From Candidatus Omnitrophota bacterium (GTDB lineage Bacteria > Omnitrophota > Omnitrophia > Omnitrophales > Aquincolibacteriaceae): DNA of 64,000 nt. Every line of letters begins with the position of its first letter. Within the stretch, counting starts at the first letter, position 1. Shown here piece by piece: positions 1,222 through 43,812 of the stretch. A model generated the notes under the pieces. The model ran no database searches. It had not been told where the DNA came from and was given only the letters and a program-made list of their open reading frames with translations. The stretch is taken from contig JBAYVF010000007.1 of the NCBI GenBank assembly GCA_041674705.1, positions 1,322-65,321 of the forward strand, read 5' to 3'. A program made the position numbers and the translations under genes.

Positions 1222-1414
1222 GGATCACCCGTTAGAGATAGGAAGCGTTTTCTCAGAAATGAGTTTGAGCCACGCTTCGGTTTATTGTGATGTCGCTTGT
1301 TCTATTTTAGAAACAAAAAACGCTTCCGTTAATACCCTGAAAACCTTGCTTGATCCTTTCCCCTTCCAGTTCCAAAGGGAACTTCGCTCCCCGTTCTCAT
1401 CATCTCTAACGGGG
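1222..1414 (-). promoter_or_regulatory. Leader element copy A: long-range stem covering the ribosome-binding region of the rubrerythrin gene
   Basis: CCCGTTAGAGAT (1228-1239), which abuts the start codon at 1219-1221, is the reverse complement of ATCTCTAACGGG (1402-1413). An inner GGAAGCG (1244-1250) / CGCTTCC (1320-1326) stem is present. A local alternative CCCCGTT (1389-1395) / AACGGGG (1408-1414) pairing also exists. The element shares a 20-nt core with copy B at 34887-34906. Confidence 0.5.
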
Positions 1415-1567
1415 CTGGCTCCTTCTTTGTCGGGTTTCCAAAAATCATAAATCCAGGCGCCAGTATAACACAGAAGAACGACAGGAGAAAAACCCGGCTC
1501 TTTTTTTTCTCCGCCTTTCGCAAAGGCGAAGAACGGATCCGTCCTCGTAAGGGACGAGGCGGAAAAG

Positions 1568-5329: not shown

Positions 5330-5340
5330 AACCAGCTTAT

Positions 5341-5470: not shown

Positions 5471-5553
5471 GAGAGGTTTTTATGTCCCATGAAGCTTGGT
5501 CTGTGAAATTCTTTTCCTTTTATTCCCCTCTTCACAATCATTAGAACTCCGCC

Positions 5554-5647: not shown

Positions 5648-5740
5648 ATGACACTTATTTATTGGATCGGCGGAATCGTCTTCCTCTTGCTTTTTGTTTA
5701 TCTTGTGGCCGCTCTTCTGAAACCGGAACTGTTCTCATGA
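5648..5740 (+). CDS. kdpF: K+-transporting ATPase subunit F
   Basis: The 30-aa product [30 protein letters not shown] has the KdpF-type YLxxALLxPExF ending. An AAAGGGG RBS is present, and the stop overlaps the kdpA ATG (ATGA at 5737-5740). Confidence 0.8.
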   Translation: MTLIYWIGGIVFLLLFVYLVAALLKPELFS

Positions 5741-7479
5741 CCGCAAATAACCTCATTCAATGTTTTGTTTTTCTGGCTTTGCTCCTTTTGTGCGTTAAGC
5801 CGCTCGGCGCCTACATGGCGCGTATCTATTCCGGAGAGCCCGCCTGGTTAAACAAGTGGCTGGAACCCTTGGAGAATGGATTTTACAAGCTTTGCGGCGT
5901 TAAGCCTGAAGAGGAAATGGGCTGGAAGACCTATACGGTCGCGATGATGCTCTTCAACATTCTTGGAATCCTCGCGGTTTATGCGCTCCAACGTTTCCAG
6001 GCCATGCTTCCTTTTAACCCGACGCACATGCCGGCAGTCCCGGCAGATCTTGCTTTCAATACCGCTGTCAGTTTTGCTACAAATACGAACTGGCAAAGCT
6101 ACGGCGGCGAAACCACGTTGAGTTATTTGACGCAGATGCTGGCGTTGACCGTTCAGAATTTCGTCTCGGCAGCCTGCGGCATGGCCGTTCTTGTGGCGCT
6201 GATCCGTGGATTTATCCGTAAACAGGCGCAAACGATCGGGAATTTTTGGGTCGACCTTGTCCGCTCTGTTCTCTATATCCTACTTCCACTCGCCTTTGTT
6301 TTTTCCATTGTTTTGGTTTCTCAGGGCGTTGTTCAAACCCTCCGTCCTTCTCAAAAAATCGTCCTCCTTCAGCCGATCAAAGATCCGTCCGGAAAGACCA
6401 TCGTCGGCCAAGAACTAGCTCTCGGCCCCGCCGCGTCACAAGTGGCAATCAAACAGCTCGGGACCAATGGCGGCGGCTTTTTTAATGTTAATTCCGCGCA
6501 TCCGTTCGAGAATCCCACGCCGCTTTCTAATTTACTGGAAGTCCTTGCGATCCTGCTGATCCCCGCGGCGCTGTGTTATACCTTTGGCTCCATGGTCAAA
6601 GACAAGCGGCAGGGATGGGCGTTGCTTATCGCCATGCTGATCATTTTCATTCCTTGTCTTCTGACCTGCGTACGTGCCGAACAATCCGGAAATCCCCTTC
6701 TGACGAAACTGGGGATCGATCAGTCCGCCAGCGCGCTTCAGGCCGGTGGAAATATGGAAGGCAAGGAAGCCCGTTTCGGGATCGTGAATTCCGCGATCTG
6801 GGCCACGGCAACGACCGCCGCATCGAACGGCTCGGTCAATGCCATGCACGATTCTTTTATGCCACTCGGCGGACTGATCCCTCTCTGGCTGATACAACTT
6901 GGAGAAGTCGTCTTCGGCGGGGTCGGGTCCGGTCTCTACGGCATGATCGCCTTCGCCATTGTTGCGGTTTTTGTCGCGGGGCTCATGGTCGGACGGACGC
7001 CTGAATATCTCGGGAAAAAGATCGAATCTTATGAAATGAAAATGGCCTCAATCATGATCCTGATCCCGACGATCGTGGTGCTTATGGGAACTGCGATCGC
7101 GGTCGTGCTTCCGGCCGGAAAAGGAGCGATCTCTAATCCCGGGCCGCACGGGTTCAGTGAAATCCTTTATGCTTTTTCTTCGGCCGGCAACAATAACGGC
7201 AGCGCCTTTGCCGGACTCTCCACGAATAACTTTTTTTATAATATCGCCCTGGGATTCGCCATGTTCCTTGCAAGATATTGGCTGGCAATCCCGGCGCTGG
7301 CGATCGCAGGATCTTTAGCAAAAAAGAAAATCGTCCCTACAAGCCCGGGGACTTTGCCGACTCATACGCCGCTTTTCATCCTGTTCCTGGTTGCCGTCAT
7401 CCTGATTGTCGGCGCTTTGACATTTTTCCCGGCGCTCGCCCTCGGTCCTATTGTGGAACATCTGATGATCGCCGGTTAA
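5737..7479 (+). CDS. kdpA: K+-transporting ATPase subunit A
   Basis: [31 protein letters not shown]... is a polytopic protein with KdpA selectivity-filter-like segments ([27 protein letters not shown]). The start was chosen at the ATG overlapping the kdpF stop. Confidence 0.95.
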
Positions 7480-7490
7480 AGGAGCTTTGC

Positions 7491-9572
7491 ATGAGCACGA
7501 CCTATAAACACAAATCACATTCTTTATTCGATCCGAAGATCGTTCTGCCGGCCATCTTTGATTCTTTCAAAAAACTCGATCCTCGTGAACAGATCAAAAA
7601 CCCGGTCATGTTCGTGGTGCTGATCGGAAGCATTCTGGCCACAGGACTTTATTTCCAGGCCGTGCTTGGAAAAGGAGAAGCTCCGGCGAGCTTCATCCTG
7701 GCGATCACACTTTGGCTCTGGTTCACGCTTATTTTTGCGAATTTTTCAACGGCCATGGCCGAAGGCCGCGGAAAGGCGCAAGCAGCAAGTCTTAAAAAGG
7801 CCAAACAAGACACCCCCGCAAAGAAACTCGCTAAAGCGCAATATGGCTCTGCTTTCGAAACTGTTTCCGCAACCGCGCTCAAGTTGGGGGATCTCGTTTT
7901 GGTAGAAGCCGGAGATATGATCCCCATGGATGGTGAAGCTATCGAAGGCGTAGCCTCGGTCGATGAAAGCGCGATCACGGGTGAAAGCGCCCCGGTCATT
8001 CGTGAAAGCGGCGGCGACCGCAACGCTGTGACGGGCGGAACCCGGGTCCTTTCCGATTGGTTGATCCTCCGGATCACTTCGAACCCCGGTGAAACGTTTC
8101 TGGACCGGATGATCGCGATGGTCGAAGGGGCCAAACGCCAAAAAACGCCGAATGAGATCGCTCTCAGCATTTTGTTGGCCGGTTTTACGCTCATTTTTCT
8201 TTTGGCGACCGCAACGTTGCTTCCCTTTTCGATCTATAGTGTGGCTTCCGCAGGACACGGCGCCGTGATCACGGTCACTGTGTTGGTCGCTCTTTTGGTC
8301 TGTTTGATCCCCACCACGATCGGCGGGCTTCTCCCCGCGATCGGAATTGCCGGGATGGATCGAATGATCCAGGCGAATGTAATTGCCATGTCCGGCCGTG
8401 CGGTCGAGGCGGCCGGCGATGTAGACATTCTTTTGTTGGATAAAACCGGCACTATCACGCTCGGGAACCGGCAAGCCGTGGCCTTCATTCCAGCTCAAGG
8501 CATCACGAAGGAAGAACTCGCCGATGCCGCGCAACTCGCTTCCCTTTCGGATGAAACTCCGGAAGGCCGGAGCATCGTGGTCCTTGCTAAAGAAAAATAC
8601 GGAATCCGGGAACGCCAGATCCATGAGCTCGGCGCTCATTTTATTCCTTTCACGGCGCAAACCCGCATGAGCGGCGTAACCCTCGGCGATGGCCGCGAGA
8701 TCCGCAAAGGATCTTCGGATGCGATCGAGACTTATGTCAAAAAGCTGGGCGGTACTTTTCCAGACGCTCTTCGCTCCAGCATCGATTTGATCTCCAGGGA
8801 CGGCGGGACACCGCTTGTCGTAGCGGAACATGGACGCGTCCTCGGCACGATCCAGCTCAAGGACATTGTCAAAGGCGGTATCAAAGAACGTTTCGCGGAA
8901 CTCCGAAAAATGGGGATCAAAACCATCATGATCACGGGAGACAATCCCCTGACCGCCGCCGCGATCGCGGCCGAGGCGGGTATGGATGATTTCCTGGCGC
9001 AAGCGACACCCGAAACAAAATTGAAATTGATACGGGATATGCAGTCCGGCGGGCGCCTGGTGGCCATGACCGGCGATGGAACAAACGACGCTCCTGCTCT
9101 AGCCCAAGCAGACGTGGCCGTGGCTATGAATACCGGCACCCAGGCCGCGAAAGAGGCCGGAAATATGGTGGACCTCGACTCTAACCCCACAAAACTGATC
9201 GAGATCGTGGAGATCGGGAAGCAACTTTTGATGACACGTGGCGCTTTGACCACTTTTAGTATCGCCAATGACGCGTCAAAATATTTTGCGATCATTCCTG
9301 CGGCGTTCGTCGGCACCTATCCAGCGCTCGCGAAACTGAACATCATGCATTTGGCGACGCCTTCAAGTGCGGTCCTTTCTGCGGTCATTTTTAACGCGCT
9401 CATTATCATCGCGCTCATTCCTTTGGCGCTACGCGGCGTTCGCTACCGGGCAGTAGCTGCCAACCGTCTCCTCCGAGACAACATTTTGATCTACGGAGCC
9501 GGCGGCATTATTACGCCGTTCATCGGGATCAAGTTAATCGACTTATTGCTTGTCGCGCTTCATTTGACGTAA
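7491..9572 (+). CDS. kdpB: K+-transporting ATPase subunit B (P-type ATPase)
   Basis: P-type ATPase motifs are present: [17 protein letters not shown] and [20 protein letters not shown] lies 6 nt upstream of the ATG at 7491. Confidence 0.95.
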
Positions 9573-9641: not shown

Positions 9642-10223
9642 ATGATACGAGAACAATTAAGACCGGCTGTAACTTCTTTTTTTCTGCTAACATTGATCAC
9701 AGGAATTCTTTATCCTTTATCTGTTACAGGGATCTCCCAGATCTTTTTCAAAGATCAAGCAAATGGAAGTCTGATTTTCAGAAACGGACAACCTTCGGGT
9801 TCTTTGTTGATCGGACAACCTTTTGATGATCCTAAGTATCTTTGGGGACGTTTGTCCTCCACAGCTCCTGTTTCTTTCAATGCCGCTGCTTCGTCAGGAT
9901 CCAACTTCGGTCCCACGAACCCGAATTTGCTGAGTGCTGTCCAAACGAGAATCAAAAGCCTGCGGGACGCAGATCCGAAAAATAAAAACCGTATCCCTGT
10001 GGATCTTGTCACCGGCTCTGCCAGCGGCCTCGATCCTCATATCAGTCCGGCGGCAGCCGAATACCAGGCCTCCCGGATCGCAAGAATAAGAAAAATATCC
10101 AGGGAAATAATCCGGTCGATTATTCGCCAACATACACAAGAACGCTTGTTTGGTATAATCGGCGAGCCTATCGTGAACGTCCTGGAAGTCAACCTGCAGT
10201 TGGATGCAAGCGTGAAGGAATAA
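9642..10223 (+). CDS. kdpC: K+-transporting ATPase subunit C
   Basis: 193 aa with an N-terminal TM anchor and KdpC-conserved SGSNFGPTNP and SASGLDPHISP segments. Confidence 0.9.
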   Translation: MIREQLRPAVTSFFLLTLITGILYPLSVTGISQIFFKDQANGSLIFRNGQPSGSLLIGQPFDDPKYLWGRLSSTAPVSFNAAASSGSNFGPTNPNLLSAVQTRIKSLRDADPKNKNRIPVDLVTGSASGLDPHISPAAAEYQASRIARIRKISREIIRSIIRQHTQERLFGIIGEPIVNVLEVNLQLDASVKE

Positions 10224-12416
10224 ATGATGGAAAACAGACCGGATCCGGATCAACTTTTAAAGCAAGTACAAGCGGAAGAAGCCCGGCGCGGAAAACTCAA
10301 GATCTTTTTCGGTGCCATGGCTGGCGTTGGCAAAACTTATTCTATGCTGGAAACCGCCCGGCACCGTAAAAAAGATGGTGTGGATGTTGTCGTCGGCTAT
10401 GTCGAAACCCACAAACGGACCGAAACCGAAGCTCTTCTTGAAGGTTTGGAGATCCTCCCCCGAAAAACGGTTTCTTATAAGAACGTGGACCTCCCGGAAT
10501 TCGACATCGACGCCGCTCTCAAAAGAAATCCTTCCCTCATCCTGGTCGATGAATTGGCCCACACGAACGCTCCGGGGTCCCGCCATTTGAAACGGTGGCA
10601 GGATGTCGAGGAATTGCTTGCCGCCGGGATCGATGTTTATACCACCTTGAATGTCCAGCATTGCGAAAGCGTCAACGATGTCATCACCCGGGTCACCGGT
10701 GTGGTCGTCCGGGAAACAGTCCCGGATACGTTCATTGAAAAGGCGGCCGAGATCGAACTCGTCGACCTTCCCTCCGAAGACCTTCTCAAACGTTTGAAAG
10801 AAGGCAAGGTCTATCTGGGCCCTCAAGCCGAACACGCCGCTCAGAATTTCTTCCAGCCCGGAAATCTCATCGCTTTGCGGCAGTTAGCGCTCCGTTACAC
10901 GGCAAAAAACGTAGACGCTCAAATGCGCAGCTTCAAAGGATTGCATTCTATTTCAAAGATCTGGAATGTCGGAGAACGATTCCTGGTTTGCATCAGCGAA
11001 AGCCCGTCCGCGATGAACCTGATCCGGGCCGCCAAACGCATTGCTTCCGAGATCGGGGCGCCCTGGACCGTTGCCTACGTTGAATCGGTCTCCTTAAGGC
11101 AGACGGAAGTAGGAAAAAAACGAGCTTTTGAAATGCTTCGCTTTGCAGAAAAACTGGGCGCCGAGGTCGTAACTCTAAATGGACAAGACATCGGAGATGA
11201 ATTAATCGCCTACGCTCGCTCTAATAACATCACGAAACTGATCGTTGGAAAACCGCAGAGAAACCGTTGGCAAGAATTTGTCTCAGGATCGATCGTCAAT
11301 AACCTTGCCCGCAAATGCGGAGAGATCGACCTTTATGTCATCAGCGGGGATCGACAAGCAGCCATTGCTCAGCTTAGAGCCGCTGAACCCCCGAAATCAT
11401 TTTCATGGAAAAATGCCTGCATCGCCCTCGGGATCGTTGCCCTCTGCTCCATGGTTAACGCCCCTCTCTCCCGCTATCTGGCACCCGCTAATCTTGTCTT
11501 AATCTATTTGCTGGGCGTCATCTGGATCTCTTTCCGCTACGGGAAGCGCGTCTCCTTCCTAGCCTCCTTACTCAGCGCGCTTTCCTTCGACTATTTCTTT
11601 ACGCAGCCCTATTTTTCCTTCACGATCTCTAACGGGCAGAATGTTTTTATATTTGTCGCCATGGCCCTCATAGGGTTCTTAATCAGTAGCTTGACGGACC
11701 GTCTAAAACAACAAACAGCTGCAACACGCATGCGTGAAAATCGCAACCGCATCCTCTATGAGCTGATGCAGGATCTTGCTAAAACGTCGACTCCGAACGG
11801 TCTTTTCCAGGCGCTCCTCCATCACGTTCGGAATTACTTCCAATTACCGGTTGTCATCTTTACTCCCAACTCCCGAAAAGAATTATCGGTGCATATTGAA
11901 AGTTTGGCAGGACATGAATTGCTCCCCAACGAAAAGGCTGTCGCTCAATGGACCTACGAACACAAACAAATAGCAGGACAAGGGAGTGACACACTCCCGG
12001 CGGCACAGGGGCTCTATCTCCCACTGGTCGGATTGGAAGTGACCCCCGGGGTACTTGGGATATTTCCTAAAGAAAAAAATCCATTCACAAATCCGGAGCA
12101 GTTACATCTGCTCCAGATGCTTGTGAACCAGACAGCATTAGCCGTGGAGGGAGCTGAGCTTGCCTTCGCGGCGCTTCGGGCTGAGGACGCGATTGAAAAA
12201 GAGCGTATCCACAACCTTCTCTTAAGTTCTTTCTCCTATGAGCTTCCGGGCCCACTTTCCGAGATCTCACAGGCAGCGGCTGAATTGCTCAAGCCAGAAA
12301 TCTTTAATGACACGGCAAAAAAGGACGCCCTTATAAAACTGATCCAGACAAAGGCTCAAGCGTTGAACAAATTAACTGCGGAGCTCCCCAAGATTCTTGA
12401 ATCCGACAATCCGTAA
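10224..12416 (+). CDS. kdpD: KdpD-like sensor lacking a kinase catalytic domain (degenerate H-box)
   Basis: The N-terminal KdpD domain (GAMAGVGKTYSML) is followed by a Usp-like region, four TM segments and a GAF-like region. Then comes ERIHNLLLSSFSYELPGPLSEI, where the canonical SHDLRTPL His is Tyr (codon 12237-12239). The ORF ends about 60 aa later with no HATPase_c N/G boxes. Confidence 0.8.
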   Translation: MMENRPDPDQLLKQVQAEEARRGKLKIFFGAMAGVGKTYSMLETARHRKKDGVDVVVGYVETHKRTETEALLEGLEILPRKTVSYKNVDLPEFDIDAALKRNPSLILVDELAHTNAPGSRHLKRWQDVEELLAAGIDVYTTLNVQHCESVNDVITRVTGVVVRETVPDTFIEKAAEIELVDLPSEDLLKRLKEGKVYLGPQAEHAAQNFFQPGNLIALRQLALRYTAKNVDAQMRSFKGLHSISKIWNVGERFLVCISESPSAMNLIRAAKRIASEIGAPWTVAYVESVSLRQTEVGKKRAFEMLRFAEKLGAEVVTLNGQDIGDELIAYARSNNITKLIVGKPQRNRWQEFVSGSIVNNLARKCGEIDLYVISGDRQAAIAQLRAAEPPKSFSWKNACIALGIVALCSMVNAPLSRYLAPANLVLIYLLGVIWISFRYGKRVSFLASLLSALSFDYFFTQPYFSFTISNGQNVFIFVAMALIGFLISSLTDRLKQQTAATRMRENRNRILYELMQDLAKTSTPNGLFQALLHHVRNYFQLPVVIFTPNSRKELSVHIESLAGHELLPNEKAVAQWTYEHKQIAGQGSDTLPAAQGLYLPLVGLEVTPGVLGIFPKEKNPFTNPEQLHLLQMLVNQTALAVEGAELAFAALRAEDAIEKERIHNLLLSSFSYELPGPLSEISQAAAELLKPEIFNDTAKKDALIKLIQTKAQALNKLTAELPKILESDNP

Positions 12417-27642: not shown

Positions 27643-27662
27643 TTTTATACCCAGGATTTCGT

Positions 27663-27722
27663 AAGGCGTACGGAGTACGGCGAAAAACATTACGCAATAC
27701 GCCGTACACCTTCCGCCGTACG
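27663..27722. repeat. GTACGG-rich palindromic element, copy 2
   Basis: AAGGCGTACGGAGTACGGCG ... GCCGTACACCTTCCGCCGTACG. Confidence 0.8.
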
Positions 27723-28828: not shown

Positions 28829-28904
28829 GAGACTAGAGACCGGAGACTGAAGACTGGAGACCCAAGCTTTTAGCTTTAGTCTGTGGTCTGTAGTCTGTGG
28901 TCTG
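28829..28904. repeat. AGACTG-unit hairpin between thyA and folA
   Basis: GAGACTAGAGACCGGAGACTGAAGACTGGAGACCC faces TAGTCTGTGGTCTGTAGTCTGTGGTCTG, forming an imperfect inverted repeat. Confidence 0.6.
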
Positions 28905-34192: not shown

Positions 34193-34879
34193 CTATCGGC
34201 GCCGGCCGAAGATCTGCAGCAAAAACAGGAACATATTAATGAAATCCAGATAAAGCATCAGAGCGCCGACGATCGCGAGTTGCTCGGGCGCGTTCGCCAT
34301 GCTCCGGTGAATGGCCTTGAGCCGTTGCGTGTCATACGCCGTAAGCCCGATAAAAACCGCGACGCCGCAATAAGAAACGATCCAGGTAAAAACAGGCGAG
34401 TGAAAAAATATATTCACGACGCTGGCAATGATCACGCCGATCAAGGCCATAAAACAGAAACTCCCGATCGAGGTCAGGTCTTGCTTCGTCACCCAGCCGT
34501 AAACGCTCACGCCCGCGAACGTCATGGCTGTAATAAAAAAAGTCGAGGAGATCGAGGCGGAAGTATAAACGAGAAAGATGCCCGACATCGTCATGCCATT
34601 CAGCGCCGAGTAGGCCAGAAAACCGATCGTCGCCGCCTGAGCTGAGATCTTCTGAAGGCTCCGGGTCAACCATATCACTAAAATAAACTCCGCGATGAAG
34701 CAAGCCCACATGCCTCCATGCAAAAGAAAGCTCAGGAGCGAGGTGTTAGTGATCGTGACAAAAGCGGCGAGCCCCGTGAGCGCGAGCCCCATGGCCATCC
34801 ATTGATACACGCGTTGCATAAAATTAGAGAAAACGTCTTCTTGAGAATACGCAAAAGGTTTATTTTCCTGCTCGTTCAT
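34193..34879 (-). CDS. Bax inhibitor-1/YccA-family membrane protein
   Basis: 228 aa with seven TM segments. The N-terminus is FMQRVYQWMAMGLALTG and the C-terminus GALMLYLDFINMFLFLLQIFG, both typical of the family. Confidence 0.85.
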   Translation of the reverse strand: MNEQENKPFAYSQEDVFSNFMQRVYQWMAMGLALTGLAAFVTITNTSLLSFLLHGGMWACFIAEFILVIWLTRSLQKISAQAATIGFLAYSALNGMTMSGIFLVYTSASISSTFFITAMTFAGVSVYGWVTKQDLTSIGSFCFMALIGVIIASVVNIFFHSPVFTWIVSYCGVAVFIGLTAYDTQRLKAIHRSMANAPEQLAIVGALMLYLDFINMFLFLLQIFGRRR

Positions 34880-35026
34880 GATTCACCCCGTTAGAGATAG
34901 GAAGCGCTACGAAAGCGCTTCCGTGCATTGCAACGATTCATTATCAAAACTGTCTTTACCCCATTCCACAAAATACCACCATCACCGCCGCTACAATCTC
35001 TAACGGGGCAAACCTCCGTTAGAGAA
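34880..35026 (-). promoter_or_regulatory. Leader element copy B: three-arm structure able to sequester or free the ribosome-binding site of the BI-1 gene
   Basis: The RBS-overlapping arm is CCCCGTTAGAGA (34886-34897, abutting the start codon at 34877-34879). It is complementary to TCTCTAACGGGG (34997-35008). That arm can instead pair with CCGTTAGAGA (35017-35026). An inner hairpin GGAAGCGC/GCGCTTCC lies at 34900-34922. Confidence 0.5.
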
Positions 35027-35064
35027 AGATTTGATGAAATATTTTATCCAAAGTTTTTGCTTAT

Positions 35065-35457
35065 TCAAGATAGAGGCGCCGGCGGTATCTCCACCGGAGC
35101 CAATGACGCTAAAAATTCTTTTATTTTCCTCGCGGGTCTGGCAACGATCGCTTTGTCGCCTTTTTCCACGATAGGGCGTTGAAGAAGATCGGGATAGATC
35201 GCCAGGAGGTCCAGCCACTGGCCTTCGGTAAGCTGCTTTTCGCCAAGCCGAAGGTCTCCAAAAAGCTGGTCCTTCTTGCGGATCAATTCCTCAACCGGAA
35301 GACCCAGCTTCTGGATGAGCTCTTTGAGCTTCGCCTTAGGGATCGGATCGGTGAAATAATCCACCGCATCAAAATCCACGTTCGCTTCTTTTAAGATCTG
35401 AGCGACCTCTTTACAGGTCGTACAAGTCGGTTTTTGATAGATCGTGATGTCAGCCAT
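35065..35457 (-). CDS. ArsC/Spx/YffB-family (glutaredoxin-fold) protein
   Basis: MADITIYQKPTCTTCKEVAQILKEANVDFDAVDY...LLQRPIV. GGAG lies 5 nt upstream of the ATG at 35455-35457. Confidence 0.75.
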   Translation of the reverse strand: MADITIYQKPTCTTCKEVAQILKEANVDFDAVDYFTDPIPKAKLKELIQKLGLPVEELIRKKDQLFGDLRLGEKQLTEGQWLDLLAIYPDLLQRPIVEKGDKAIVARPARKIKEFLASLAPVEIPPAPLS

Positions 35458-35466
35458 AAAGACTCC

Positions 35467-35530
35467 AAGGTACGGAGTGCAGCGCAAGGTGTACGGCGGA
35501 AAAGCTTACGCCGTACTCCGTACGCCGTAC
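35467..35530. repeat. GTACGG-rich palindromic element, copy 3
   Basis: AAGGTACGGAGTGCAGCGCAAGGTGTACGGCGG ... CGCCGTACTCCGTACGCCGTAC. Confidence 0.8.
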
Positions 35531-36036
35531 TAGGTTTTTAGGAAGTACAGCCCCACATAGACTTTCGGATCGACAAGGAATCCTTTTTTTTCCATCTCAT
35601 AAAGCCAAATATCCGCCTCTTTAAGCGGTATTTCATGGACCCGGATGGATTCTGAGGCATCGCCGCCCCCCGGACCTTTTTTCACTACGTCGAGAGCCTG
35701 AAAGAAGGCGATAGTTTCAGAACTCAGGCCGCTTGAAACTGGACCCTCCACCAAAAATGATAAATGCTCCGCTTCATAACCGGTTTCTTCGAAAAGTTCG
35801 CGCCGGGCAGCGGCCTCCATCGTCTCCGGGTCATGCAGCATCTGGTCATTCACAAGTCCTGCCGGCCATTCGATCACTTGGGCTTCCACCGGCCTTCGGA
35901 ACTGTTCGACAAAAATAACTTTTCCTTCTTTCGTCATCGGCACGATAACGACGATCCCGCTGCAATTAGTCCGTTTGACGTACTCCCAATTGTCTTCGGA
36001 GATCAGATGAAGATATTTTCCTTTGTGTAAGATCAT
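35530..36036 (-). CDS. NUDIX hydrolase (ADP-ribose pyrophosphatase-like)
   Basis: The Nudix box is GLVNDQMLHDPETMEAAARRELFEETGY. Confidence 0.85.
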   Translation of the reverse strand: MILHKGKYLHLISEDNWEYVKRTNCSGIVVIVPMTKEGKVIFVEQFRRPVEAQVIEWPAGLVNDQMLHDPETMEAAARRELFEETGYEAEHLSFLVEGPVSSGLSSETIAFFQALDVVKKGPGGGDASESIRVHEIPLKEADIWLYEMEKKGFLVDPKVYVGLYFLKT

Positions 36037-36137: not shown

Positions 36138-37901
36138 TTAGAAACCAGCAGCTTCTCCGCTCGCGCGGGGGTCGCTTTCGCCCTCTATTCTACCAGAACC
36201 CTCTTCAAAACAAACCATTTGCGCAAGTCCGACCGGATCTTCTTTTTCGATATCATGCCCCAAAAGAGCGAGCTTCAAACGGATCATTTCCTGACCATAG
36301 AGCCCGGACTCCATGTGAAGCGCTGTGTCCCGGACCAAAAGCCTTGGAGATTCCACCGCTCCGGAGCAGGACGCGCCAAGATCAAGCTTCTGGACTATCA
36401 CATTAAGAAGCACCGCCGCCGCATCATCCGGACCATAAGCATTCAACAGAAGATCGGGCTTCCCATTTTTAAAAATGAATGTGGGAGCTTCGGATCCGCG
36501 GGGTCTTTGCCCTCCGGAGATAAGTTCCGCGGACCGGGGATCCTTCACAGACGATGGATCCGCGGCAAAATCAGTGAGCAGATCATTGAGAAAAAAACCG
36601 TAGCCCGGAACCTTCAGCGCCGAACCAAAGGCATCTCCCAATGTCGCGGTTAGGATCGCGATATTTCCCTGCGGGTCTACGATCATAATGGAAGATCCCG
36701 CGCGCTTCCTTCCTTTCTCGGCCCCAGCCACTTTCATCTCATCGGATTTTAAAACCCGATCAAACTGAATGGTATTCATCCGGTCTTGCGCCCATGTTTC
36801 CGAAAGGAGTTCGTTCAGCGGAATATCAAAAAGATCCGGGTCGGCAACCCCTGAGCGCTTCGAGAAGGCGACCTTCTGGATTTCTCCGAGGATATGGTAT
36901 GTCTCCGGCACCTGCCCAAATCCGGGGATGCCAAAACGGGAAAGAAGATTGAGCCCGCGAAAAAGCATCACGCCTCCGTCGGCCGGAGGTCCCGCGCTGA
37001 AGAGATCGTATCCCTGATAAGTGACATGAAGGGGATCCCGCGCCGCGATCGTATAACCCTCAAGGTCCTTTTCATCCAAGAGGCCTGCCCGATAAACATT
37101 CTTACGAACAGCGCGCGCTATCTCTTTCGCGACCACACCGCTATAAAAAGTCTTCGCCCCCTTCGTCTGGATCAGACGGAACGCCTTGGCAAGTTCGGGT
37201 TGAGAGAGTTTTTTCCCGGCTTCGAGAGGAATTCCATTCTCGAAAAAAACCGACTTCGCGGAGTCCAAAAGCGCCAATCTTTTCGAATTTTCACGAAGCG
37301 CTTCCGCAAGGGCCTGCGACACTTCGGCTCCTTCTTCCGTATAACGGATCGCCGGATCCATCAGTTTCGCAAAAGGAAATTTATGCGTTCCGTATTTAGC
37401 ATGAACCTCTTCGGTTAATTTTAAGAGTCCCGGAACACCGACCGAAAGCCCGCCTGTGTTTCTTTCCGGTTGATAAGGAAGTGGTTTGCCAGTCTCGCCC
37501 AGGAACATCTTCGGGAAGGCTTTGCCGGGGGCCTTAACACTTCCATCGAAAGAGAGAATGCGCCGGGTGCCCACATCATAAAAAAGAAAAAGGCCGCCGC
37601 CCCCGATCCCGGACGCCTGCGGCTCGACCACATTGAGCACCCATTGGGCTGTCACAGCCGCGTCGACTGCATTCCCGCCCTGTTTCAGCACTTCTAAGGC
37701 GGCTTGCGTCGCGCGTGGATCCGGAGTAATGACCATGGCTTTTTCGCCTGCGGCGGCATGCAGCTCCGGAAAGAAAAGGACGGTGAGGAGAAGAACAAGT
37801 AAGGCGGAAGGCGTACGGCGTACGGAGAAAATTTTTAAAAAAAAGCTCTTAAAAAACGCCGTACACCGTACTCCGTACGCCGTATCCAAGAGAATTTTCA
37901 T
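36138..37901 (-). CDS. ggt: Gamma-glutamyltransferase
   Basis: GGNAVDAAV, GIGGGGLFLFY and the autoprocessing site region ...SEAPTFIF(K) are present, and the family length fits. The N-terminal 30 codons are encoded by a GTACGG element, so the start is uncertain. Confidence 0.85.
   Translation of the reverse strand: MKILLDTAYGVRCTAFFKSFFLKIFSVRRTPSALLVLLLTVLFFPELHAAAGEKAMVITPDPRATQAALEVLKQGGNAVDAAVTAQWVLNVVEPQASGIGGGGLFLFYDVGTRRILSFDGSVKAPGKAFPKMFLGETGKPLPYQPERNTGGLSVGVPGLLKLTEEVHAKYGTHKFPFAKLMDPAIRYTEEGAEVSQALAEALRENSKRLALLDSAKSVFFENGIPLEAGKKLSQPELAKAFRLIQTKGAKTFYSGVVAKEIARAVRKNVYRAGLLDEKDLEGYTIAARDPLHVTYQGYDLFSAGPPADGGVMLFRGLNLLSRFGIPGFGQVPETYHILGEIQKVAFSKRSGVADPDLFDIPLNELLSETWAQDRMNTIQFDRVLKSDEMKVAGAEKGRKRAGSSIMIVDPQGNIAILTATLGDAFGSALKVPGYGFFLNDLLTDFAADPSSVKDPRSAELISGGQRPRGSEAPTFIFKNGKPDLLLNAYGPDDAAAVLLNVIVQKLDLGASCSGAVESPRLLVRDTALHMESGLYGQEMIRLKLALLGHDIEKEDPVGLAQMVCFEEGSGRIEGESDPRASGEAAGF
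37803..37884. repeat. GTACGG-rich palindromic element, copy 4 (inside the 5' end of the ggt ORF)
   Basis: GGCGGAAGGCGTACGGCGTACGGAG ... CGCCGTACACCGTACTCCGTACGCCGTA. It is translated as ...TAYGVRCTAFFKSFFLKIFSVRRTPSA... Confidence 0.8.
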
Positions 37902-37962: not shown

Positions 37963-38904
37963 CTAGCGGCCCAGGATCTTTTTCGCGGCTTTGATAATAT
38001 GCGGATGGGTGAGGCCGTACTTTTCCAAAAGCTCTTCCGCTTTACCGGATTCCGCAAAGGTGTCTTGGATGGCCACAAAACCCATCTTGCAAGGATGTTT
38101 CTTCGCGAGGAAAGTCGCGATCGCGCTTCCGAGACCTCCCCAGATCTGATGTTCTTCCGCGACAAGAACGTGCCCGGTCCGCTTGGCCTCTTCCAGAATG
38201 AGCTCGGTATCCAGCGGCTTCACGGTGTGCATGTCGATCACGCTTGCGCTGATGCCTTCGTCGGCAAGCCGTTCTGCCGCCTCGAGCGCCTCGAAAACTT
38301 CCAAACCATTGGCGATGATCGTCAGGTCTTTCCCTTCGCGCAACCGGACGCCTTTGCCGATCTTAAAATCCGTGCCGGCTTTGTGGACGACCGGGGCTTT
38401 CGGCCTGCCCGTTCGAATATAAACGGGACCCACATATTTCGCGGTCTCAAGAACCAGCGCCCGCGCGGAAACTTCATCCGCAGGGATCATCACAACGAAC
38501 CCGGGAAGGCTCGTCATAAGAGCCACATCTTCGATCGACATTTGTGAAGCGCCATCTTCCCCGACCGTGATACCGCCGTGGGAACCGACGACTTTTACGT
38601 TGAGCTCCGAAAAGGCGACGCCCATGCGGAACTGATCGAAGCCTTTGCTGACCAGAAAAGACGCAAAGCTTGAGATAAAAGGGATCTTCCCGCAAGAAGC
38701 AAGCCCCGCGGCCACTCCGACAAGATTCGCTTCCTGGATCCCGACATTGAAGAACCGTTCCGGGAATTTTTCAGAGAAAAGAACCGATTTCGTGGACTTG
38801 GAAAGATCCGCATCAAGGACCACAACCTGCGGATTCATCTTGCCGATCTCGACAAGCGTCTCCCCGTAAGCATCTCGCGTAGCTTTGCCTAAGATTTTGT
38901 TCAC
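37963..38904 (-). CDS. Transketolase, C-terminal (pyrimidine-binding) subunit
   Basis: 313 aa with TRDAYGETLVEIG, FFNVGIQEANLVGVAAGLA and HGGITVGEDGASQ. The start is a GTG at 38902-38904. Confidence 0.9.
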   Translation of the reverse strand: MNKILGKATRDAYGETLVEIGKMNPQVVVLDADLSKSTKSVLFSEKFPERFFNVGIQEANLVGVAAGLASCGKIPFISSFASFLVSKGFDQFRMGVAFSELNVKVVGSHGGITVGEDGASQMSIEDVALMTSLPGFVVMIPADEVSARALVLETAKYVGPVYIRTGRPKAPVVHKAGTDFKIGKGVRLREGKDLTIIANGLEVFEALEAAERLADEGISASVIDMHTVKPLDTELILEEAKRTGHVLVAEEHQIWGGLGSAIATFLAKKHPCKMGFVAIQDTFAESGKAEELLEKYGLTHPHIIKAAKKILGR

Positions 38905-39008
38905 CCCGTTAGATCCTCTCTAAAATAGTAAAATTCGAAAACAATTTCTTCGCCTGAAAATCACCAAAAATTTCCACATCAGCTCCTTTGGTTAAGGATC
39001 TAACGGGG
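38904..39008 (-). promoter_or_regulatory. Leader element copy C between the two transketolase subunit genes (stem with compensatory change)
   Basis: CCCCGTTAGATCC (38904-38916, overlapping the GTG start) is the exact complement of GGATCTAACGGGG (38996-39008). The outer 10 bp match copies A and B. The inner 3 bp differ on both arms in a compensatory way. Confidence 0.5.
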
Positions 39009-39831: not shown

Positions 39832-39923
39832 GAATTTATGAATGCCTTGGCTGATTTGTATAGAGGAAAAAGACAGCGAAGTCTAGCGGCTTTCTTGGGT
39901 GTCGTCAATGAATAAAAACGCTT

Positions 39924-39994
39924 CCGTACGGCGGAAGGCGTACGGCGTAACGCGTATTTAGTTTTCGCCGTACTCCGTACGCCCTACGCCGTAC
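39924..39994. repeat. GTACGG-rich palindromic element, copy 5
   Basis: CCGTACGGCGGAAGGCGTACGGCG ... CGCCGTACTCCGTACGCCCTACGCCGTAC, in a divergent intergenic region. Confidence 0.8.
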
Positions 39995-40048
39995 CCGCAT
40001 GTGTGTTTTGCGGATTGAAGCATGGGTCTCAGCGTGATATTCTTACTC

Positions 40049-41317: not shown

Positions 41318-41587
41318 ATGAAATTTTTAATACATCTTAGCGCGTGGGCAGGCGCCGTCCTTCCCCTTTTCAATATTCCGCTCATGATGCGGATCATCAA
41401 GCGGAAGTCTGCTGACGATATCAGTCTGGTCTGGCTTTTCGGAGTTTGGATCTGCATCCTTCTCATGTCTCCCGCGGCCCTCACTTCGCAGGATTTCGCA
41501 TTCCGCGCCTTCGGCTGGACCAACGTTATTTTTTTTACCGGGGTCGTCATCGTGACCGTGAAGTATCATCATAAATTCAAAAAATGA
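41318..41587 (+). CDS. Small three-TM membrane protein, PQ-loop/SemiSWEET-like
   Basis: 89 aa: MKFLIHLSAWAGAVLPLFNIPLMMRIIKRKSADDISLVWLFGVW... The layout resembles SemiSWEETs, with IPL in place of the PQ motif. The family call is tentative. Confidence 0.4.
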   Translation: MKFLIHLSAWAGAVLPLFNIPLMMRIIKRKSADDISLVWLFGVWICILLMSPAALTSQDFAFRAFGWTNVIFFTGVVIVTVKYHHKFKK

Positions 41588-41647
41588 GTACGGCGGAAGG
41601 CGTACGGTGTAAAAGCTTCTTTCGCCGTACTCCGTACGCCGTACCCC
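41588..41647. repeat. GTACGG-rich palindromic element, copy 6
   Basis: GTACGGCGGAAGGCGTACGGTG ... CGCCGTACTCCGTACGCCGTACCCC. Confidence 0.8.
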
Positions 41648-41661
41648 TTACGGTCTTTTAG

Positions 41662-42036
41662 ATGCATCCCACCTATAAAAGAATGCTCGCGGGGCTTGAG
41701 AAAAAAAAGAAGGCCTCGCGCCGTAAAAAAACGTCCTCCGGCAAGTGGTCCCTTTATATCCTGAAATGCGGCGACGGATCTTTTTACACGGGGATCACCA
41801 ACGACCTCGAACGACGCTTCAAAATGCATCAAGCCGGCAAGGCTTCCCGCTACACCCGCTCCCACGGCCCTGTGGAGATGCTTTATTCGGAGAAATGCGG
41901 CGACCGGTCCAGCGCTCTCATCCGGGAATGTGAAGTGAAGGAATGGCCGCGAACCAGGAAAGAGAAATTAATAAAATCGAGAGACGGAAAACGCGGGACG
42001 TTTTGCAAGGCGGAAGGCGCCGCGCGTGCGGCGTAA
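41662..42036 (+). CDS. GIY-YIG nuclease-family protein (UPF0213-like)
   Basis: WSLYILKCGDGSFYTGITNDLERRFKMHQAG...RYTRSHGPVEMLYSE...ALIRECEVKEW. The last ~10 codons (CKAEGAARAA) are encoded by a degenerate GTACGG-element arm. Confidence 0.8.
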   Translation: MHPTYKRMLAGLEKKKKASRRKKTSSGKWSLYILKCGDGSFYTGITNDLERRFKMHQAGKASRYTRSHGPVEMLYSEKCGDRSSALIRECEVKEWPRTRKEKLIKSRDGKRGTFCKAEGAARAA

Positions 42037-42072
42037 AAATTTTTCCATCGCCGTACGCCTTACTCCGTACGC
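42007..42072. repeat. GTACGG-rich palindromic element, copy 7 (degenerate left arm)
   Basis: AAGGCGGAAGGCGCCGCGCGTGCGGCG ... CGCCGTACGCCTTACTCCGTACGC, between convergent genes. Confidence 0.7.
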
Positions 42073-42074
42073 TT

Positions 42075-42674
42075 TTAATTCAATTGGTCTTCCAGCTTTG
42101 CGGTGAGGGCATCGATCTGCTTTAGAAGATAATCCGGAACAAGATCTTCCTCTTCAAGCTGGGTCTTCGCAGAATTCAAGAAACCAATGAGTCGCCTCAA
42201 AATGGAGCCTCGCTTTTGCTCCTTAAGTTCCGGCGTATCCTTCGGCGCGTGCGTCTCGAGGATCTTCTTCACCTGCGCCCGGACCTCCTTGACCTCCTTG
42301 CCTTCATTGAGGACGTCATTGCGGAGCTCGGCAAATTCGTTGGTGGGGATGTTCTTGTTGTTTTTGGCAAGCCGGAGCACGTTCACCGACTCATAATCCG
42401 GGATCTTCTTGGGCGTTTCTTCTTCCGTATAATCCGGCTTTACGATCCGAGGCTCTTCTTTTTCCAGGAAAGAATAGGACTTGATAAGCTTCGACGCCGT
42501 CGCCTCTTTAATGCTCAGTTCTTTATGACAATAAGTCTCGAACGCCTGATAACCCCATTCTTTGTAGAGCTTGTTCTTATAGATGGAGAAGAGGTGCTGA
42601 CCCAGCTGGATCCAGCTCGCTTTGTGATGCTTGGCGATCTCAACGGTTTTTATTCGCAATTCATCGTTACCCAT
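42075..42674 (-). CDS. Hypothetical protein (charged, helical)
   Basis: About 199 aa from MGNDELRIKTVEIAKHHKASWIQLGQHLF... I recognise no family. The longer ORF start at 42755 would translate hairpin sequence. Confidence 0.55.
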   Translation of the reverse strand: MGNDELRIKTVEIAKHHKASWIQLGQHLFSIYKNKLYKEWGYQAFETYCHKELSIKEATASKLIKSYSFLEKEEPRIVKPDYTEEETPKKIPDYESVNVLRLAKNNKNIPTNEFAELRNDVLNEGKEVKEVRAQVKKILETHAPKDTPELKEQKRGSILRRLIGFLNSAKTQLEEEDLVPDYLLKQIDALTAKLEDQLN

Positions 42675-43774: not shown

Positions 43775-43812
43775 GTACGGTGTAAAAACTTTTTCGCCGT
43801 ATTCCGTACGCC
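43775..43812. repeat. GTACGG-rich palindromic element, copy 9 (short)
   Basis: GTACGGTG ... CGCCGTATTCCGTACGCC, immediately downstream of the giant-ORF stop. Confidence 0.65.

Follow-up and report, generated by a model that had tools for sequence, protein, structure and literature searches.

The leader of the BI-1 gene in the analysed window, a 64-kb stretch of a Candidatus Omnitrophota genome, raises the question of whether a long stem-loop placed directly in front of a start codon is a regulatory RNA or a sequence of entirely different origin. The initial annotation described three arms on the minus strand, the middle one of which could pair either with an upstream arm or with an arm overlapping a site similar to the Shine-Dalgarno (SD) sequence; it read this arrangement as the logic of a translational riboswitch, thermosensor or attenuator, and pointed to two further copies in the window (here copies A and C). 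Our analysis suggests that the sequence in the BI-1 leader (copy B) is very probably MITE-like, an internally deleted and non-autonomous representative of a widespread family of tiny mobile elements whose full-length form codes for a GIY-YIG nuclease.

The BI-1 leader and the three copies in the window

A check of the sequence found all the described arms, the hairpin and the SD-like site on the minus strand (Table 1), with the middle arm CCCCGTTAGAGA at 35008..34997 and the third arm TCTCTAACGGGG at 34897..34886. The upstream arm TCTCTAACGG is present as well, one base away from the position reported for it (35025..35016 instead of 35017-35026); it was, however, wrongly assigned to the element, as it is the SD region of the host and copies A and C have no such arm. 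The ends of copy B are perfect (CCCCGTTAGAGAT...ATCTCTAACGGGG), and an alignment over the full length of the copy includes about 50 members of the ~120-nt class (see below) from other genomes. The promoter and terminator scan of copy B revealed no terminator and, as the sole promoter-like site, the native one upstream of the element, which is expected therefore to be transcribed within the leader. The TTAAAATA box at the position of this promoter-like site is kept in all relatives examined, and the BI-1 start ATGAACGAGCAG is conserved among relatives.

Table 1. Copies A, B and C and the host features next to them, in window coordinates
Feature	Position	Strand	Context
Copy A, 187-nt non-coding element, ~187-nt class	1228..1414	-	Between native SD and rubrerythrin-family ATG
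Native SD AAGGAG	1424..1419	-	Ahead of copy A
Spacer TGAATC, then BI-1 start codon ATG (34879..34877)	34877..34885	-	
SD-like GGGGTGA	34889..34883	-	Copy B 3' repeat and the next three bases
Copy B, 123-nt non-coding element, ~120-nt class	34886..35008	-	BI-1 5'UTR, between native SD and ATG
Copy B 3' terminal inverted repeat ATCTCTAACGGGG	34886..34898	-	
Copy B subterminal hairpin GGAAGCGC-tttcgta-GCGCTTCC	34900..34922	-	
Copy B 5' terminal inverted repeat CCCCGTTAGAGAT	34996..35008	-	The "middle arm" of the initial annotation
Host native leader TCTCTAAC-GGAGG-TTTG	35009..35025	-	Outside the element; homologous to relatives' leaders
Native SD GGAGG of BI-1 leader	35017..35013	-	
BI-1 promoter-like site TTGAAT, 16 nt, TAAAAT	35041..35068	-	Upstream of copy B; promoter scan
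Copy C, 105-nt element, variant ends CCCCGTTAGATCC...GGATCTAACGGGG	38904..39008	-	Transketolase N/C stop/start junction

The two further copies exist and both adjoin start codons, as had been noted: copy A lies upstream of the ATG at 1221 of a gene whose product matches Pfam Rubrerythrin, and the final G of copy C is the first base of the GTG start (38904) of the transketolase C-subunit gene. It was also correctly observed that all three copies lie between co-directional minus-strand genes and that copies A and B have a common core, CCCGTTAGAGATAGGAAGCG. The end module of copy A is like that of copy B, with ~66 nt inserted into the GGAAGCGTTTT/AAAACGCTTCC hairpin. Terminal inverted repeats of 12-13 bp (CCCCGTTAGA...TCTAACGGGG) are perfect in copies A, B and C, the distance from the end of the copy to the start codon is 0-7 nt, and a long ORF is absent from all three (187, 123 and 105 nt). 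The boundaries of the elements are uncertain by ~5 nt because the subfamily has semi-conserved extensions, a 5' CTTGC and a 3' GTGAA. According to a relaxed search for paired ends, these three are the only complete elements in the 64-kb window; no protein-coding copy of the family was found within it, and no clear target duplication is seen at copies A, B and C. The 8-mer CCGTTAGA occurs 8 times in the window compared with 1.23 expected, a count reached in none of 100 shuffles.

A family of elements with a coding form

The copies belong to a real family of elements. The 18-mer CTTCCTATCTCTAACGGG, which corresponds to the hairpin-side end, was found at at least 114 loci in GTDB genomes (Patescibacteria, Omnitrophota and Elusimicrobia), 101 of which have also the 5' repeat, at discrete distances of ~112-125, 183-192 and 274-278 nt; the family sample is anchored on this single 18-mer and all counts refer to the matches listed, so the proportions of the classes and the counts of orientations are biased. 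The terminal inverted repeats of the family comprise 13-14 bp, (T/C)CCCGTTAGAGAT...ATCTCTAACGGG(A/G). Among the matches listed, several contigs of single genomes carry the 18-mer, and tandem copies with a 6-nt spacer are also seen. Genomes in which the family occurs include CP011215.1 and the MAGs GCA_964482725.1 and GCA_964585045.1. The 18-mer is read in two frames (...KRFLSLTG* and ...GASYL*), hence its conservation is at the nucleotide level.

The ~275-nt class is filled by one ORF of 77-91 aa (~84) encoding a GIY-YIG nuclease. These proteins are intact and match Pfam PF01541 (E ~1e-17) over nearly their whole length; among solved structures, the UPF0213 proteins 1zg2 and 1ywl come nearest in sequence, and no specific model was matched in NCBIfam. 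The two repeats enclose the nuclease ORF, which is found in multiple copies across genomes. The 275-bp units share their ends with the MITE-like copies and encode the GIY-YIG nuclease, which is not a recognised transposase.

The ~120-nt and ~187-nt classes are non-coding; they keep the repeats and have a GGAAG...CTTCC hairpin on the 3' side. The gene of the coding form is flanked by two inverted ends, and a separate hairpin is confined to the non-coding forms, where it stands on the 3' side. Together the 3' repeat and this hairpin make up the conserved end module (CCCGTTAGAGATAGGAAG-hairpin-CTTCC). Of 52 elements in the ~120-nt class, 48 have such a hairpin; its inner stem comes in at least 20 different versions, and compensatory changes are seen at three pairs. 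The covariation score is 0.246, compared with 0.101 in shuffles, 0/500 of which scored as high. The bases flanking the element (-1/+1) pair in 97 of 99 copies among the matches listed. The interior is unconserved: in the alignment of the ~120-nt class, conservation is limited to the ends and this one hairpin.

The statement that the element resembles no known RNA family agrees with the Rfam searches: at the gathering threshold no family overlaps the elements in the window and in 18 element-bearing loci, and a scan of 34800-35100 at permissive E-values returned only noise (BTnc049, E = 0.76). Two other candidate explanations were rejected. Translation through the element as an N-terminal extension of the host protein is at variance with the lack of a 3-nt periodicity in the lengths of the ~120-nt class and with stops in all frames of the interiors. 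Regarding integrons, the order of motifs on both strands is GTTAGAG...CTCTAAC, as opposed to R'' (RYYYAAC)...R' (GTTRRRY) within 57-141 nt in attC sites, and the neighbours of the window copies are conserved syntenic housekeeping genes rather than a cassette array beside an integrase.

Empty sites in relatives

Copy B, a recent insertion, is missing from the orthologous BI-1 leader in all seven syntenic Omnitrophota relatives (L116-L121 and L124); one of the relatives without it has a BI-1 protein 91% identical. The BI-1 leaders of relatives are normally short (GGAGG, 5-8 nt, ATG). At the place of the "upstream arm" they exhibit ATCTAACCCGGAGG or CCTAACAGGAGG, and the counterparts of the native leader read ATCTAACCCGGAGGGACAGT directly followed by ATG in L124 and CCTAACAGGAGGTTGTT directly followed by ATG in L116. 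Copy C is missing in six of the seven syntenic relatives (L116-L121), where the transketolase N and C genes overlap (TAATG or TGATG) or are 1-13 nt apart; in L124 the orthologous copy C is present, but decayed in the 3' repeat. Copy A is missing in both relatives examined at the rubrerythrin locus (L122 and L123), which exhibit AAGGAG(G), 5-8 nt and ATG. Judged by these sequence comparisons, we show here that copies A, B and C are lineage-specific insertions and not conserved leaders, that copy C, common to the closest relative, is older and copy B younger, and that the insertion of copy B separated the BI-1 ATG from the native GGAGG, at a point downstream of the native promoter-like site. A genome that is empty at both B and C (L119) has copies elsewhere, one of them full-length (L024, L050 and L066).

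Docking at start codons and a short direct duplication

The association with start codons extends beyond the window. If a start codon is counted only where it opens an ORF of 60 aa or more (starts being called from ORF length alone), it is at distance 0 from the 3' end in 57 of the 114 copies listed, compared with 0.9% of random positions; 94 of the 114 have a start codon within 30 nt, compared with 23% of random positions. In 7 further copies, out of 101 two-ended ones among the matches listed, it is the 5' end that adjoins a gene start, on the other strand. The docked genes are unrelated to one another and come from distant phyla; they include recognisable housekeeping genes such as topA, rpsS, rpmJ, dnaJ, map and pgk (assigned from N-terminal sequences).

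A second ATG is found 5-7 nt ahead of the 5' repeat in 41 of 55 ATG-docked copies among the matches listed. The signal is significant at the family level: the post-ATG match to codon 2 of the host gene has a mean of 1.8 nt versus 0.91 in shuffled pairs (maximum 1.27 in 1000 shuffles), and the register-6 matches amount to 3.34 versus 2.54. The duplication comprises the host ATG and about two bases, with the length varying between 4 and 6 bp. Element ends that are followed by G are located 6-7 nt from the ATG, or else at 12-19 nt, in which case a canonical AAGGAGG occupies the gap; CCUCC is missing from the one Patescibacteria 16S rRNA 3' end captured. In the full-length form two frames stop at most 7 nt from the host ATG and the third continues in frame into the host gene.

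Alternative explanations

The original proposal was that of a cis-regulatory RNA switch, in which the middle arm alternates between its partners, so that a ligand, temperature or the position of the ribosome would decide whether BI-1 is translated. The three arms do exist, the copies stand beside start codons, the internal hairpin covaries, and the local hairpin of arms 1 and 2 would form first during transcription. As claimed, in the predicted fold the long-range stem of copy B (up to 19 bp, G-U pairs included) sequesters the SD-like GGGGUGA, the 3' repeat being fully paired; the folding z-scores are -3.99 for copy B, -2.19 for copy A and -3.58 for copy C. The alternative pairings are, however, far from balanced: the structures with the two arm pairings are predicted at -62.1 and -53.4 kcal/mol, a gap of 8.7, the probability of pairing is 0.9986 for arms 2 and 3 versus 1.5e-7 for arms 1 and 2, and the minimum fold is the same from 10 to 50 C. 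The predicted folding of the BI-1 leader is that of one dominant state and not of a switch. Further evidence against regulation of this type is provided by the lack of the element in the same leader of seven relatives, by the nature of arm 1, which belongs to the native SD region and is lacking from copies A and C as well as from the majority of the family, by the unconserved interior without a match in Rfam, and by the family as a whole, with its unrelated downstream genes, some reversed copies and a protein-coding version. We find it very improbable that copy B is an RNA switch.

Or perhaps the element is mobile by origin, and the copies at start sites have been kept for their action on the host mRNA? 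They might provide a replacement ribosome-binding site, insulation from upstream cistrons (copy C), a stabilising hairpin at the 5' end or, in the repeat stem, a processing site for RNase III. Precedents are known for such effects: the Correia elements of Neisseria are cut by RNase III, and in genes 25 and 38 of phage T4 a hairpin brings the SD and the AUG together. Exaptation of this sort is consistent with the canonical spacing of the SD mimic that comes after the 3' end in hosts using SD sites, with the predicted closing stem that brings the native SD beside the AUG in copies A and B, and with copy C, which breaks the overlap of the transketolase genes, gives the first base of the GTG start, and has been retained in two lineages despite the decayed 3' repeat in one of them. 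Yet the relatives do without the element, its predicted structure would inhibit initiation rather than aid it, and selection removing harmful insertions explains the pattern equally well. Conservation between phyla extends to the end sequences, beyond pairing alone, as would be expected if a protein recognises them. We regard exaptation as rather unlikely. A different possibility is that the copies are non-transposable, dispersed targets of a chromosomal single-strand-specific GIY-YIG nuclease, like the NTS of SsnA in Neisseria, that the nuclease modulates recombination or transformation near particular genes, and that the repeats spread by recombination, not transposition. A single-domain GIY-YIG gene flanked by its own repeats, together with many intergenic copies, is indeed what is seen in the Ssn systems, and a conserved flank with a hairpin and a variable distal stem resembles the design of the NTS. 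We consider this possibility distinctly improbable, given the discrete units with two inverted ends and fixed size classes, the duplications of start codons, the tandem arrays with 6-nt spacers, the clean empty sites, the unmatched SRM consensus (see below) and the position of the nuclease ORF between the repeats, together with its own multiple copies across genomes.

Proposed mechanism

For the mobile element as which we interpret copy B, we infer both the mechanism of mobility and the effect on BI-1 expression. The GIY-YIG nuclease of the family would act in trans on the end module (repeat and hairpin), probably recognised as single-stranded DNA by analogy to the Ssn nucleases, and would drive the spread to ATGAA-like or RTGAA-like targets. 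Insertions at start sites may survive because the end of the element is compatible with translation. In SD-using hosts this end reads GGGGTGA and could act as an SD mimic 5-6 nt from the ATG, while on the mRNA the repeats are predicted to close the insert into a stem-loop, which would bring the displaced native SD back beside the AUG. The apparent "three-arm switch" would be a by-product of the resemblance of the host leader to the end of the element. The best reading of these features is that the end of the element tolerates or replaces the ribosome-binding site; against this reading, the SD mimic of BI-1 is wholly buried in the predicted fold. To our knowledge, GIY-YIG enzymes are hydrolytic nucleases, and we know of no strand-transfer activity among them.

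Comparison with known systems

The closest published analogue are the Ssn nucleases with the NTS/SRM hairpin repeats (Chenal et al., Nat Commun 2025, PMC11893778). The ssn genes are flanked by dispersed hairpin repeats in a layout that the authors call IS-like, although mobility of the unit is not demonstrated in the published work (PMC11893778). The family described here is similar in that the GIY-YIG protein has a single domain of ~85-95 residues, its gene stands between repeats (here the two inverted ends), many further intergenic copies of the repeat exist, and the repeat comprises a conserved oriented flank and a hairpin. It differs in that the ORF lies within true terminal inverted repeats in a 275-bp unit, and in the presence of non-coding deletion derivatives, short target duplications, empty sites and docking at start codons. 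The published SRM consensus HGTCWY...RNCYNB is matched by 0 of 101 elements; its one match in the window (0.5 expected) is located elsewhere.

Bacterial MITEs (Correia/NEMIS, RUP, ERIC, Nezha) resemble the non-coding copies as multi-copy, intergenic elements of 100-200 bp with terminal inverted repeats, whose insertions are polymorphic among related genomes; they are co-transcribed with their neighbours and fold as long stem-loops in the mRNA, as is predicted for the copies described here. They originate, however, from classical IS with DDE transposases and have fixed target duplications (TA for Correia), whereas the only coding relative found here is a GIY-YIG nuclease, and the family crosses phyla with nearly invariant ends. 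We know of no MITE reported to dock at start codons. The REP/BIME-RAYT systems and IS200/IS605 also combine small palindromic repeats with a small nuclease that recognises single-stranded hairpins, and their non-autonomous copies far outnumber the gene. However, RAYT and TnpA belong to the HUH (Y1) enzymes, a REP consists of a single hairpin of 20-40 nt that bears a GTAG head, and IS200/IS605 have neither inverted ends nor a duplication; a relationship to these systems was rejected, as the present family has inverted ends and lacks both a GTAG head and an HUH gene.

The RPE of Rickettsia are likewise palindromic selfish elements (100-150 bp) that persist where the function of the gene survives, but they lie in frame inside the coding sequence and are translated, unlike the copies described here, which are placed just outside the 5' edge of the ORF and have lengths without a 3-nt periodicity. 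Finally, free-standing GIY-YIG homing endonucleases (seg of T4, fungal mitochondrial ORFs that duplicate gene ends) are selfish genes between or at the ends of host genes, the function of which is preserved; in contrast to the present family they possess a DNA-binding domain, have neither inverted ends nor MITE derivatives, and move from allele to allele of a single site instead of reaching many different genes.

Implications

It is a tentative proposal, with the balance tilted slightly against it in our judgement, that the family represents an undescribed class of mobile DNA: autonomous elements of ~275 bp with an ORF of ~84 GIY-YIG residues and repeats of 13-14 bp, MITE-like offspring of 105-190 bp, start-site-specific insertion with duplication of the start codon and ~2 bases, a distribution over Patescibacteria, Omnitrophota and Elusimicrobia, and ends that would spare host translation, through stops in two frames at most 7 nt from the host ATG in the coding form and through an SD mimic at canonical spacing in SD-using hosts. 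No description of the family was found in the searchable literature, where words of the element sequence match unrelated primers only and the one relevant paper on GIY-YIG in connection with Patescibacteria, transposons, start codons or MITEs is that on Ssn (PMC11893778). If the proposal is true, these would be among the smallest self-encoded mobile DNA known and would provide the first evidence of truly mobile Ssn-like units of GIY-YIG gene and repeat. The family links the newly described single-domain GIY-YIG nucleases of the Ssn type to insertions that did take place, as seen from empty sites, duplications and deletion derivatives, and suggests a route to mobility that needs only a nuclease of ~84 residues. 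The nuclease and the end module could constitute a new site-specific enzyme-substrate pair acting on single-stranded DNA. The family also presents a selfish element placed exactly where ribosomes bind the mRNA of essential genes, and some of the genomes that carry it are among the smallest in bacteria. How a hydrolytic nuclease drives insertion, how start sites are found, and how translation proceeds with a structured insert of 120-275 nt between SD and AUG can now be tested. For annotation, the consequence is that such stem-loops in front of genes of Omnitrophota and Patescibacteria should not be called riboswitches.

Other candidates in the window and its relatives

Several similar sequences were considered and rejected as parts of the family. 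The match to TCTCTAACGG at 11626 is due to chance, as it lies inside the kdpD coding sequence and has no partner. The CCGTTAGA word upstream of the transketolase N gene of L124 belongs to a conserved promoter region and not to an element. The window has a GIY-YIG gene of its own (41662..42036), whose product exhibits only 34% identity over 62 residues to the nucleases of the family; its role as the cognate nuclease was rejected, and its synteny is kept in relatives, with a different repeat family on both sides of the gene.

Insertions upstream of three genes in the window

Copy B, which precedes the BI-1 gene, had been interpreted in the initial annotation as a translational switch, with a middle arm (arm2) pairing either with an upstream arm (arm1) or with an arm over the GGGGTGA Shine-Dalgarno (SD) sequence (arm3). 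The coordinates assigned to the arms were correct to within one base. The regulatory reading is not supported by the present analysis; the underlying object is nevertheless more interesting than a plain MITE. The window derives from a Candidatus Omnitrophota metagenome contig, and comparison with seven relatives of the same gene order (BI-1 proteins 79–91% identical to that of the window) revealed that the BI-1 leader lacks the element in all seven. It consists there of a promoter-like box TTAAAATA, GGAGG, 5–8 nt and ATG (ATCTAACCCGGAGGGACAGT-ATG in the closest relative, CCTAACAGGAGGTTGTT-ATG in another). The window leader shares this box, which scores as TTGAAT-16-TAAAAT (35068..35041), and the GGAGG, with the 123-nt copy B placed between GGAGG-TTTG and TGAATC-ATG. 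Because the relatives keep this leader without the element, the "upstream arm" is the host's own leader and not a part of the element.

The rubrerythrin leader of two relatives (AAGGAG(G), 5–8 nt, ATG) lacks copy A. At the transketolase junction, the genes of six relatives overlap by one base (TAATG/TGATG) or lie 1–13 nt apart; copy C is present in the window and in the closest relative (L124), where its 3' repeat has decayed to GGATCCAACAAG. Judged by these sequence comparisons, copies A, B and C are insertions. Copy C is older, being common to two lineages, and copy B younger, as it is missing from a relative with 91% identity in BI-1. One relative (L119, GCA_964482725.1) is empty at the B and C sites and carries family copies elsewhere in its genome (L024, L050, L066), one of them full-length. 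The native BI-1 leader of the clade already contains TCTAAC..GGAGG, resembling the element end TCTCTAACGGGG, which could be a coincidence, target mimicry or gene conversion.

The window contains 8 occurrences of the motif CCGTTAGA versus 1.23 expected, a count reached in 0 of 100 shuffles, and a relaxed paired-end search of the window found exactly three elements; a lone TCTCTAACGG at 11626, inside kdpD, is a chance match. Copy A belongs to a ~187-nt class and copy B to a ~120-nt class, while copy C lacks the hairpin and its ends are variant. Every copy folds better than shuffled sequence (z-scores: A -2.19, B -3.99, C -3.58). The 64-kb window holds no coding copy of the family.

Coordinates of the features discussed (window numbering unless another locus is named)
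Feature	Position	Strand	Remark
BI-1 start codon ATG	34879	minus	
Host arm TCTCTAACGG upstream of copy B	35025..35016	minus	then AGGTTTG
Copy B 5' repeat CCCCGTTAGAGAT	35008..34996	minus	then ~73 nt of unremarkable sequence
Copy B hairpin GGAAGCGC-tttcgta-GCGCTTCC	34922..34900	minus	
Copy B 3' end TATCTCTAACGGGG	last base 34886	minus	then TGAATC and ATG
Copy A	1414..1228	minus	3' end 6 nt from ATG of rubrerythrin-family gene
Copy C	39008..38904	minus	last G is first base of the GTG start of transketolase C subunit
TCTAAC..GGAGG leader sites	35016-35025; L124 about 5975-5990; L116 (a relative) about 9980-9995		
Heptamer hairpins	2752-2831, 27653-27722, 35465-35535, 37791-37897, 39918-39998, 41585-41655, 42007-42076, 43225-43290, 43379-43411, 43786-43828		
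GIY-YIG gene, 124 aa	41662..42036	plus	
AGACTGG/AGACTGC repeats	2718-2742, 15308-15332, 28830-28868		from repeat scan
c-di-AMP riboswitch	5332-5480	plus	Rfam RF00379, 69 bits; directly upstream of kdpA
kdpA	5662..7479		downstream of riboswitch
kdpB-like P-type ATPase ORF	7278..9572		downstream of riboswitch
kdpD	10224..12416		downstream of riboswitch
Giant ORF	43813-63993	minus	>6726 codons, leaves the window; 9439 residues on contig
Internal repeats of giant ORF, ~290 nt	45485-45776, 46997-47288		

Predicted RNA structure of the copy B leader

Folding of the leader between the likely transcription start and position +20 predicted a single dominant structure, in which the two repeats, together with G-U pairs reaching into the flanks (GGUUUG.../...UGAAUC), make up a 19-bp closing stem. 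The predicted pair probability is 0.9986 for arm2:arm3 versus 1.5e-7 for arm1:arm2, the best predicted structure with the latter pairing is 8.7 kcal/mol worse, and the same minimum fold is predicted at 10, 25, 37 and 50 C. So one-sided a fold, unchanged over this range, speaks against alternating arms, and the modelled energy landscape is not that of a switch. In the predicted fold GGGGUGA is fully paired, the native GGAGG has its first three bases mostly unpaired, and the closing stem sets the displaced native SD at its foot, beside AUG, which may help to explain why the insertion was tolerated. An SD placed beside AUG by a stem has a precedent in phage T4 genes 25 and 38.

The family in other genomes

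The external sample comprised GTDB species genomes with the 18-mer CTTCCTATCTCTAACGGG common to copies A and B, and is anchored on this one 18-mer, which was found in at least 114 stretches. The hosts among the matches listed are mostly Patescibacteria, with several Omnitrophota and Elusimicrobia, often with several contigs per genome. At 101 of the at least 114 loci, CCGTTAGAG, the 5' repeat, is found upstream, and its distances are discrete; the matches listed fall into three size classes. The ~275-nt class (31 copies) is filled by one ORF of 77–91 residues (e.g. MFYYTYILKSKKDGKLYTGSTKDLRKRL...GMGKRYLKNRL), whose product is a single-domain GIY-YIG nuclease (PF01541, E ~1e-17) with the UPF0213 proteins 1zg2 and 1ywl as the nearest solved proteins by sequence. 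The ~187-nt (about 16 copies) and ~120-nt (about 52 copies) classes are non-coding. The ~120-nt class retains the 5' repeat and ~25 nt including the position of the nuclease start codon (GTTATG), followed by an unconserved interior and ACGGAAG-stem-loop-CTTCC-TATCTCTAACGGG; the ~187-nt class differs from this design by a ~70-nt insert in the hairpin loop. The 18-mer is read in two different frames across subgroups, and is thus conserved as nucleic acid and not as protein. In 97 of 99 copies among the matches listed, the two bases that flank CCCG...CGGG form a pair (T-A in most Patescibacteria copies, C-G in others); boundaries in the Omnitrophota subfamily hold to about ±5 nt, given semi-conserved extensions CTTGC (5' side) and GTGAA (3' side).

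Among the matches listed, 48 of 52 ~120-nt copies have the hairpin, and their inner stems are of at least 20 different kinds. The MAFFT alignment revealed compensatory changes at three hairpin pairs (11–13 sequences each), and the covariation score of 0.246, versus 0.101 for shuffles, was equalled in 0 of 500 shuffles and fell to 0.074 or less with the partners slid. Covariation across further copies, as the switch proposal entailed, is seen for this internal hairpin; the interior of the ~120-nt class is unconserved.

The proposed association with start codons extends beyond the window. With starts called from ORFs alone (at least 60 residues), a start codon directly follows the last G of the element in 57 of the 114 matches listed, the 5' end adjoins an opposite-strand start codon in 7 more, and 94 have a start within 30 nt, versus 0.9% (directly at a start) and 23% (within 30 nt) for random positions in the same loci. 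From their N-termini, we take docked ORFs to encode topoisomerase I (three genomes), S19, L36, DnaJ, methionine aminopeptidase, Pgk, Ddl and RuvX. In three Patescibacteria genomes (loci L022, L112 and L074; two coding copies, one ~120-nt copy) the ORF whose start codon the element adjoins begins MKL(L/V)IVESP(A/S)KAK and is presumably topoisomerase I; this repeated docking may point to a hot spot or to an insertion that is old and has decayed.

Among the ATG-docked copies listed, 41 of 55 have a second ATG 5–7 nt before the 5' repeat (exactly 6 nt in 33). The bases after it repeat the host codon 2 over 1.8 nt on average, versus 0.91 when the pairs were shuffled (highest of 1000 shuffles, 1.27), as in ATGAGT/ATGAGT, ATGATT/ATGATT and ATGGAT/ATGGAT or, in reverse orientation, ATTCAT/ATTCAT and GTCCAC/GTCCAC. 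The second ATG with its matching bases resembles a short target duplication whose length varies. At several loci, copies in tandem are separated by a duplication-like spacer of exactly 6 nt. Tandem or nested copies were seen in the flanks (3' or 5') of L009, L082, L094, L036, L047 and L113, where 6 nt (e.g. ATGAAT) separate the 3' end of one element from the often degenerate 5' repeat of the next.

The element ends appear matched to host translation signals. When the end is followed by G (…CGGGG), the start lies either 6–7 nt away, with the terminal GGGG(TGA) at the expected SD position (GGGGTGAAC-ATG, GGGGTAAATC-ATG, and window copies A, GGGTGATCC-ATG, and B, GGGGTGAATC-ATG), or 12–19 nt away, with a canonical AAGGAGG in between. 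When it is followed by A, ATG comes directly next. The sole Patescibacteria 16S rRNA 3' end among the fetched loci (Paceibacterota, L030 5306-5360, minus strand, ...GTCGTGGAATAATTC) contains neither CCUCC nor the usual GGATCACCTCCTT, i.e. no canonical anti-SD; this single case fits SD-independent initiation in hosts whose element abuts ATG. In the coding form, the frames across ...TATCTCTAACGGGATGA, read directly from the sequences, give TAA 5 nt before the host ATG, TGA overlapping ATGA, and a third frame running into the host gene, an arrangement that would allow translational coupling.

Possible mechanism and relation to known systems

The sequence comparisons show that the elements are insertions, that they form a structured family, that copies dock at start codons with a duplication signal, and that the end module is conserved. 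We propose that the family nuclease recognizes the end module and so could mobilize coding and non-coding copies alike; cleavage by this hydrolytic enzyme would then have to lead to insertion with a 4–6-bp duplication. The near-invariant end sequence across phyla argues for recognition by a protein rather than for an RNA stem alone. The start-codon pattern might then result from choice of ATGAA-like targets together with selection against disruptive insertions. Such an element would work like a MITE, but with a partner protein that is not a known transposase. The coding partner looks like an Ssn unit. Ssn enzymes, which consist of a single GIY-YIG nuclease domain, are specific for single-stranded DNA and cleave it beside their repeat (Chenal et al., PMC11893778); copies of the repeat flank the Ssn genes, an organization called IS-like by the authors, who did not demonstrate mobility (PMC11893778). 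Like the end module, Ssn substrates combine an oriented conserved flank with a hairpin of conserved base and varying tip (PMC11893778). However, the published consensus of the Ssn repeats (SRM) matches 0 of the 101 elements among the matches listed. The searchable literature, whose coverage is incomplete and where an earlier description is possible, yielded no report of start-codon docking, a 275-bp coding unit or host-matched ends.

Other repeats and genes in the window

A second, more abundant intergenic repeat family forms long hairpins, with arms of 3–4 tandem heptamers, (GTACGGN)n ... (NCCGTAC)n. The 124-aa GIY-YIG gene of the window has one such hairpin on either side, an arrangement of repeat, gene and repeat that resembles Ssn genes; the SRM consensus has no match to the heptamer hairpins of the window. 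At the same intergenic sites L124 has hairpins with a different heptamer (GCGCAAC type), and AGACTGG/AGACTGC units make up a further heptamer-type repeat in the window. The association of the c-di-AMP riboswitch with kdp genes is of a known kind. The giant ORF contains internal repeats, and similarly huge genes occupy its place in relatives.
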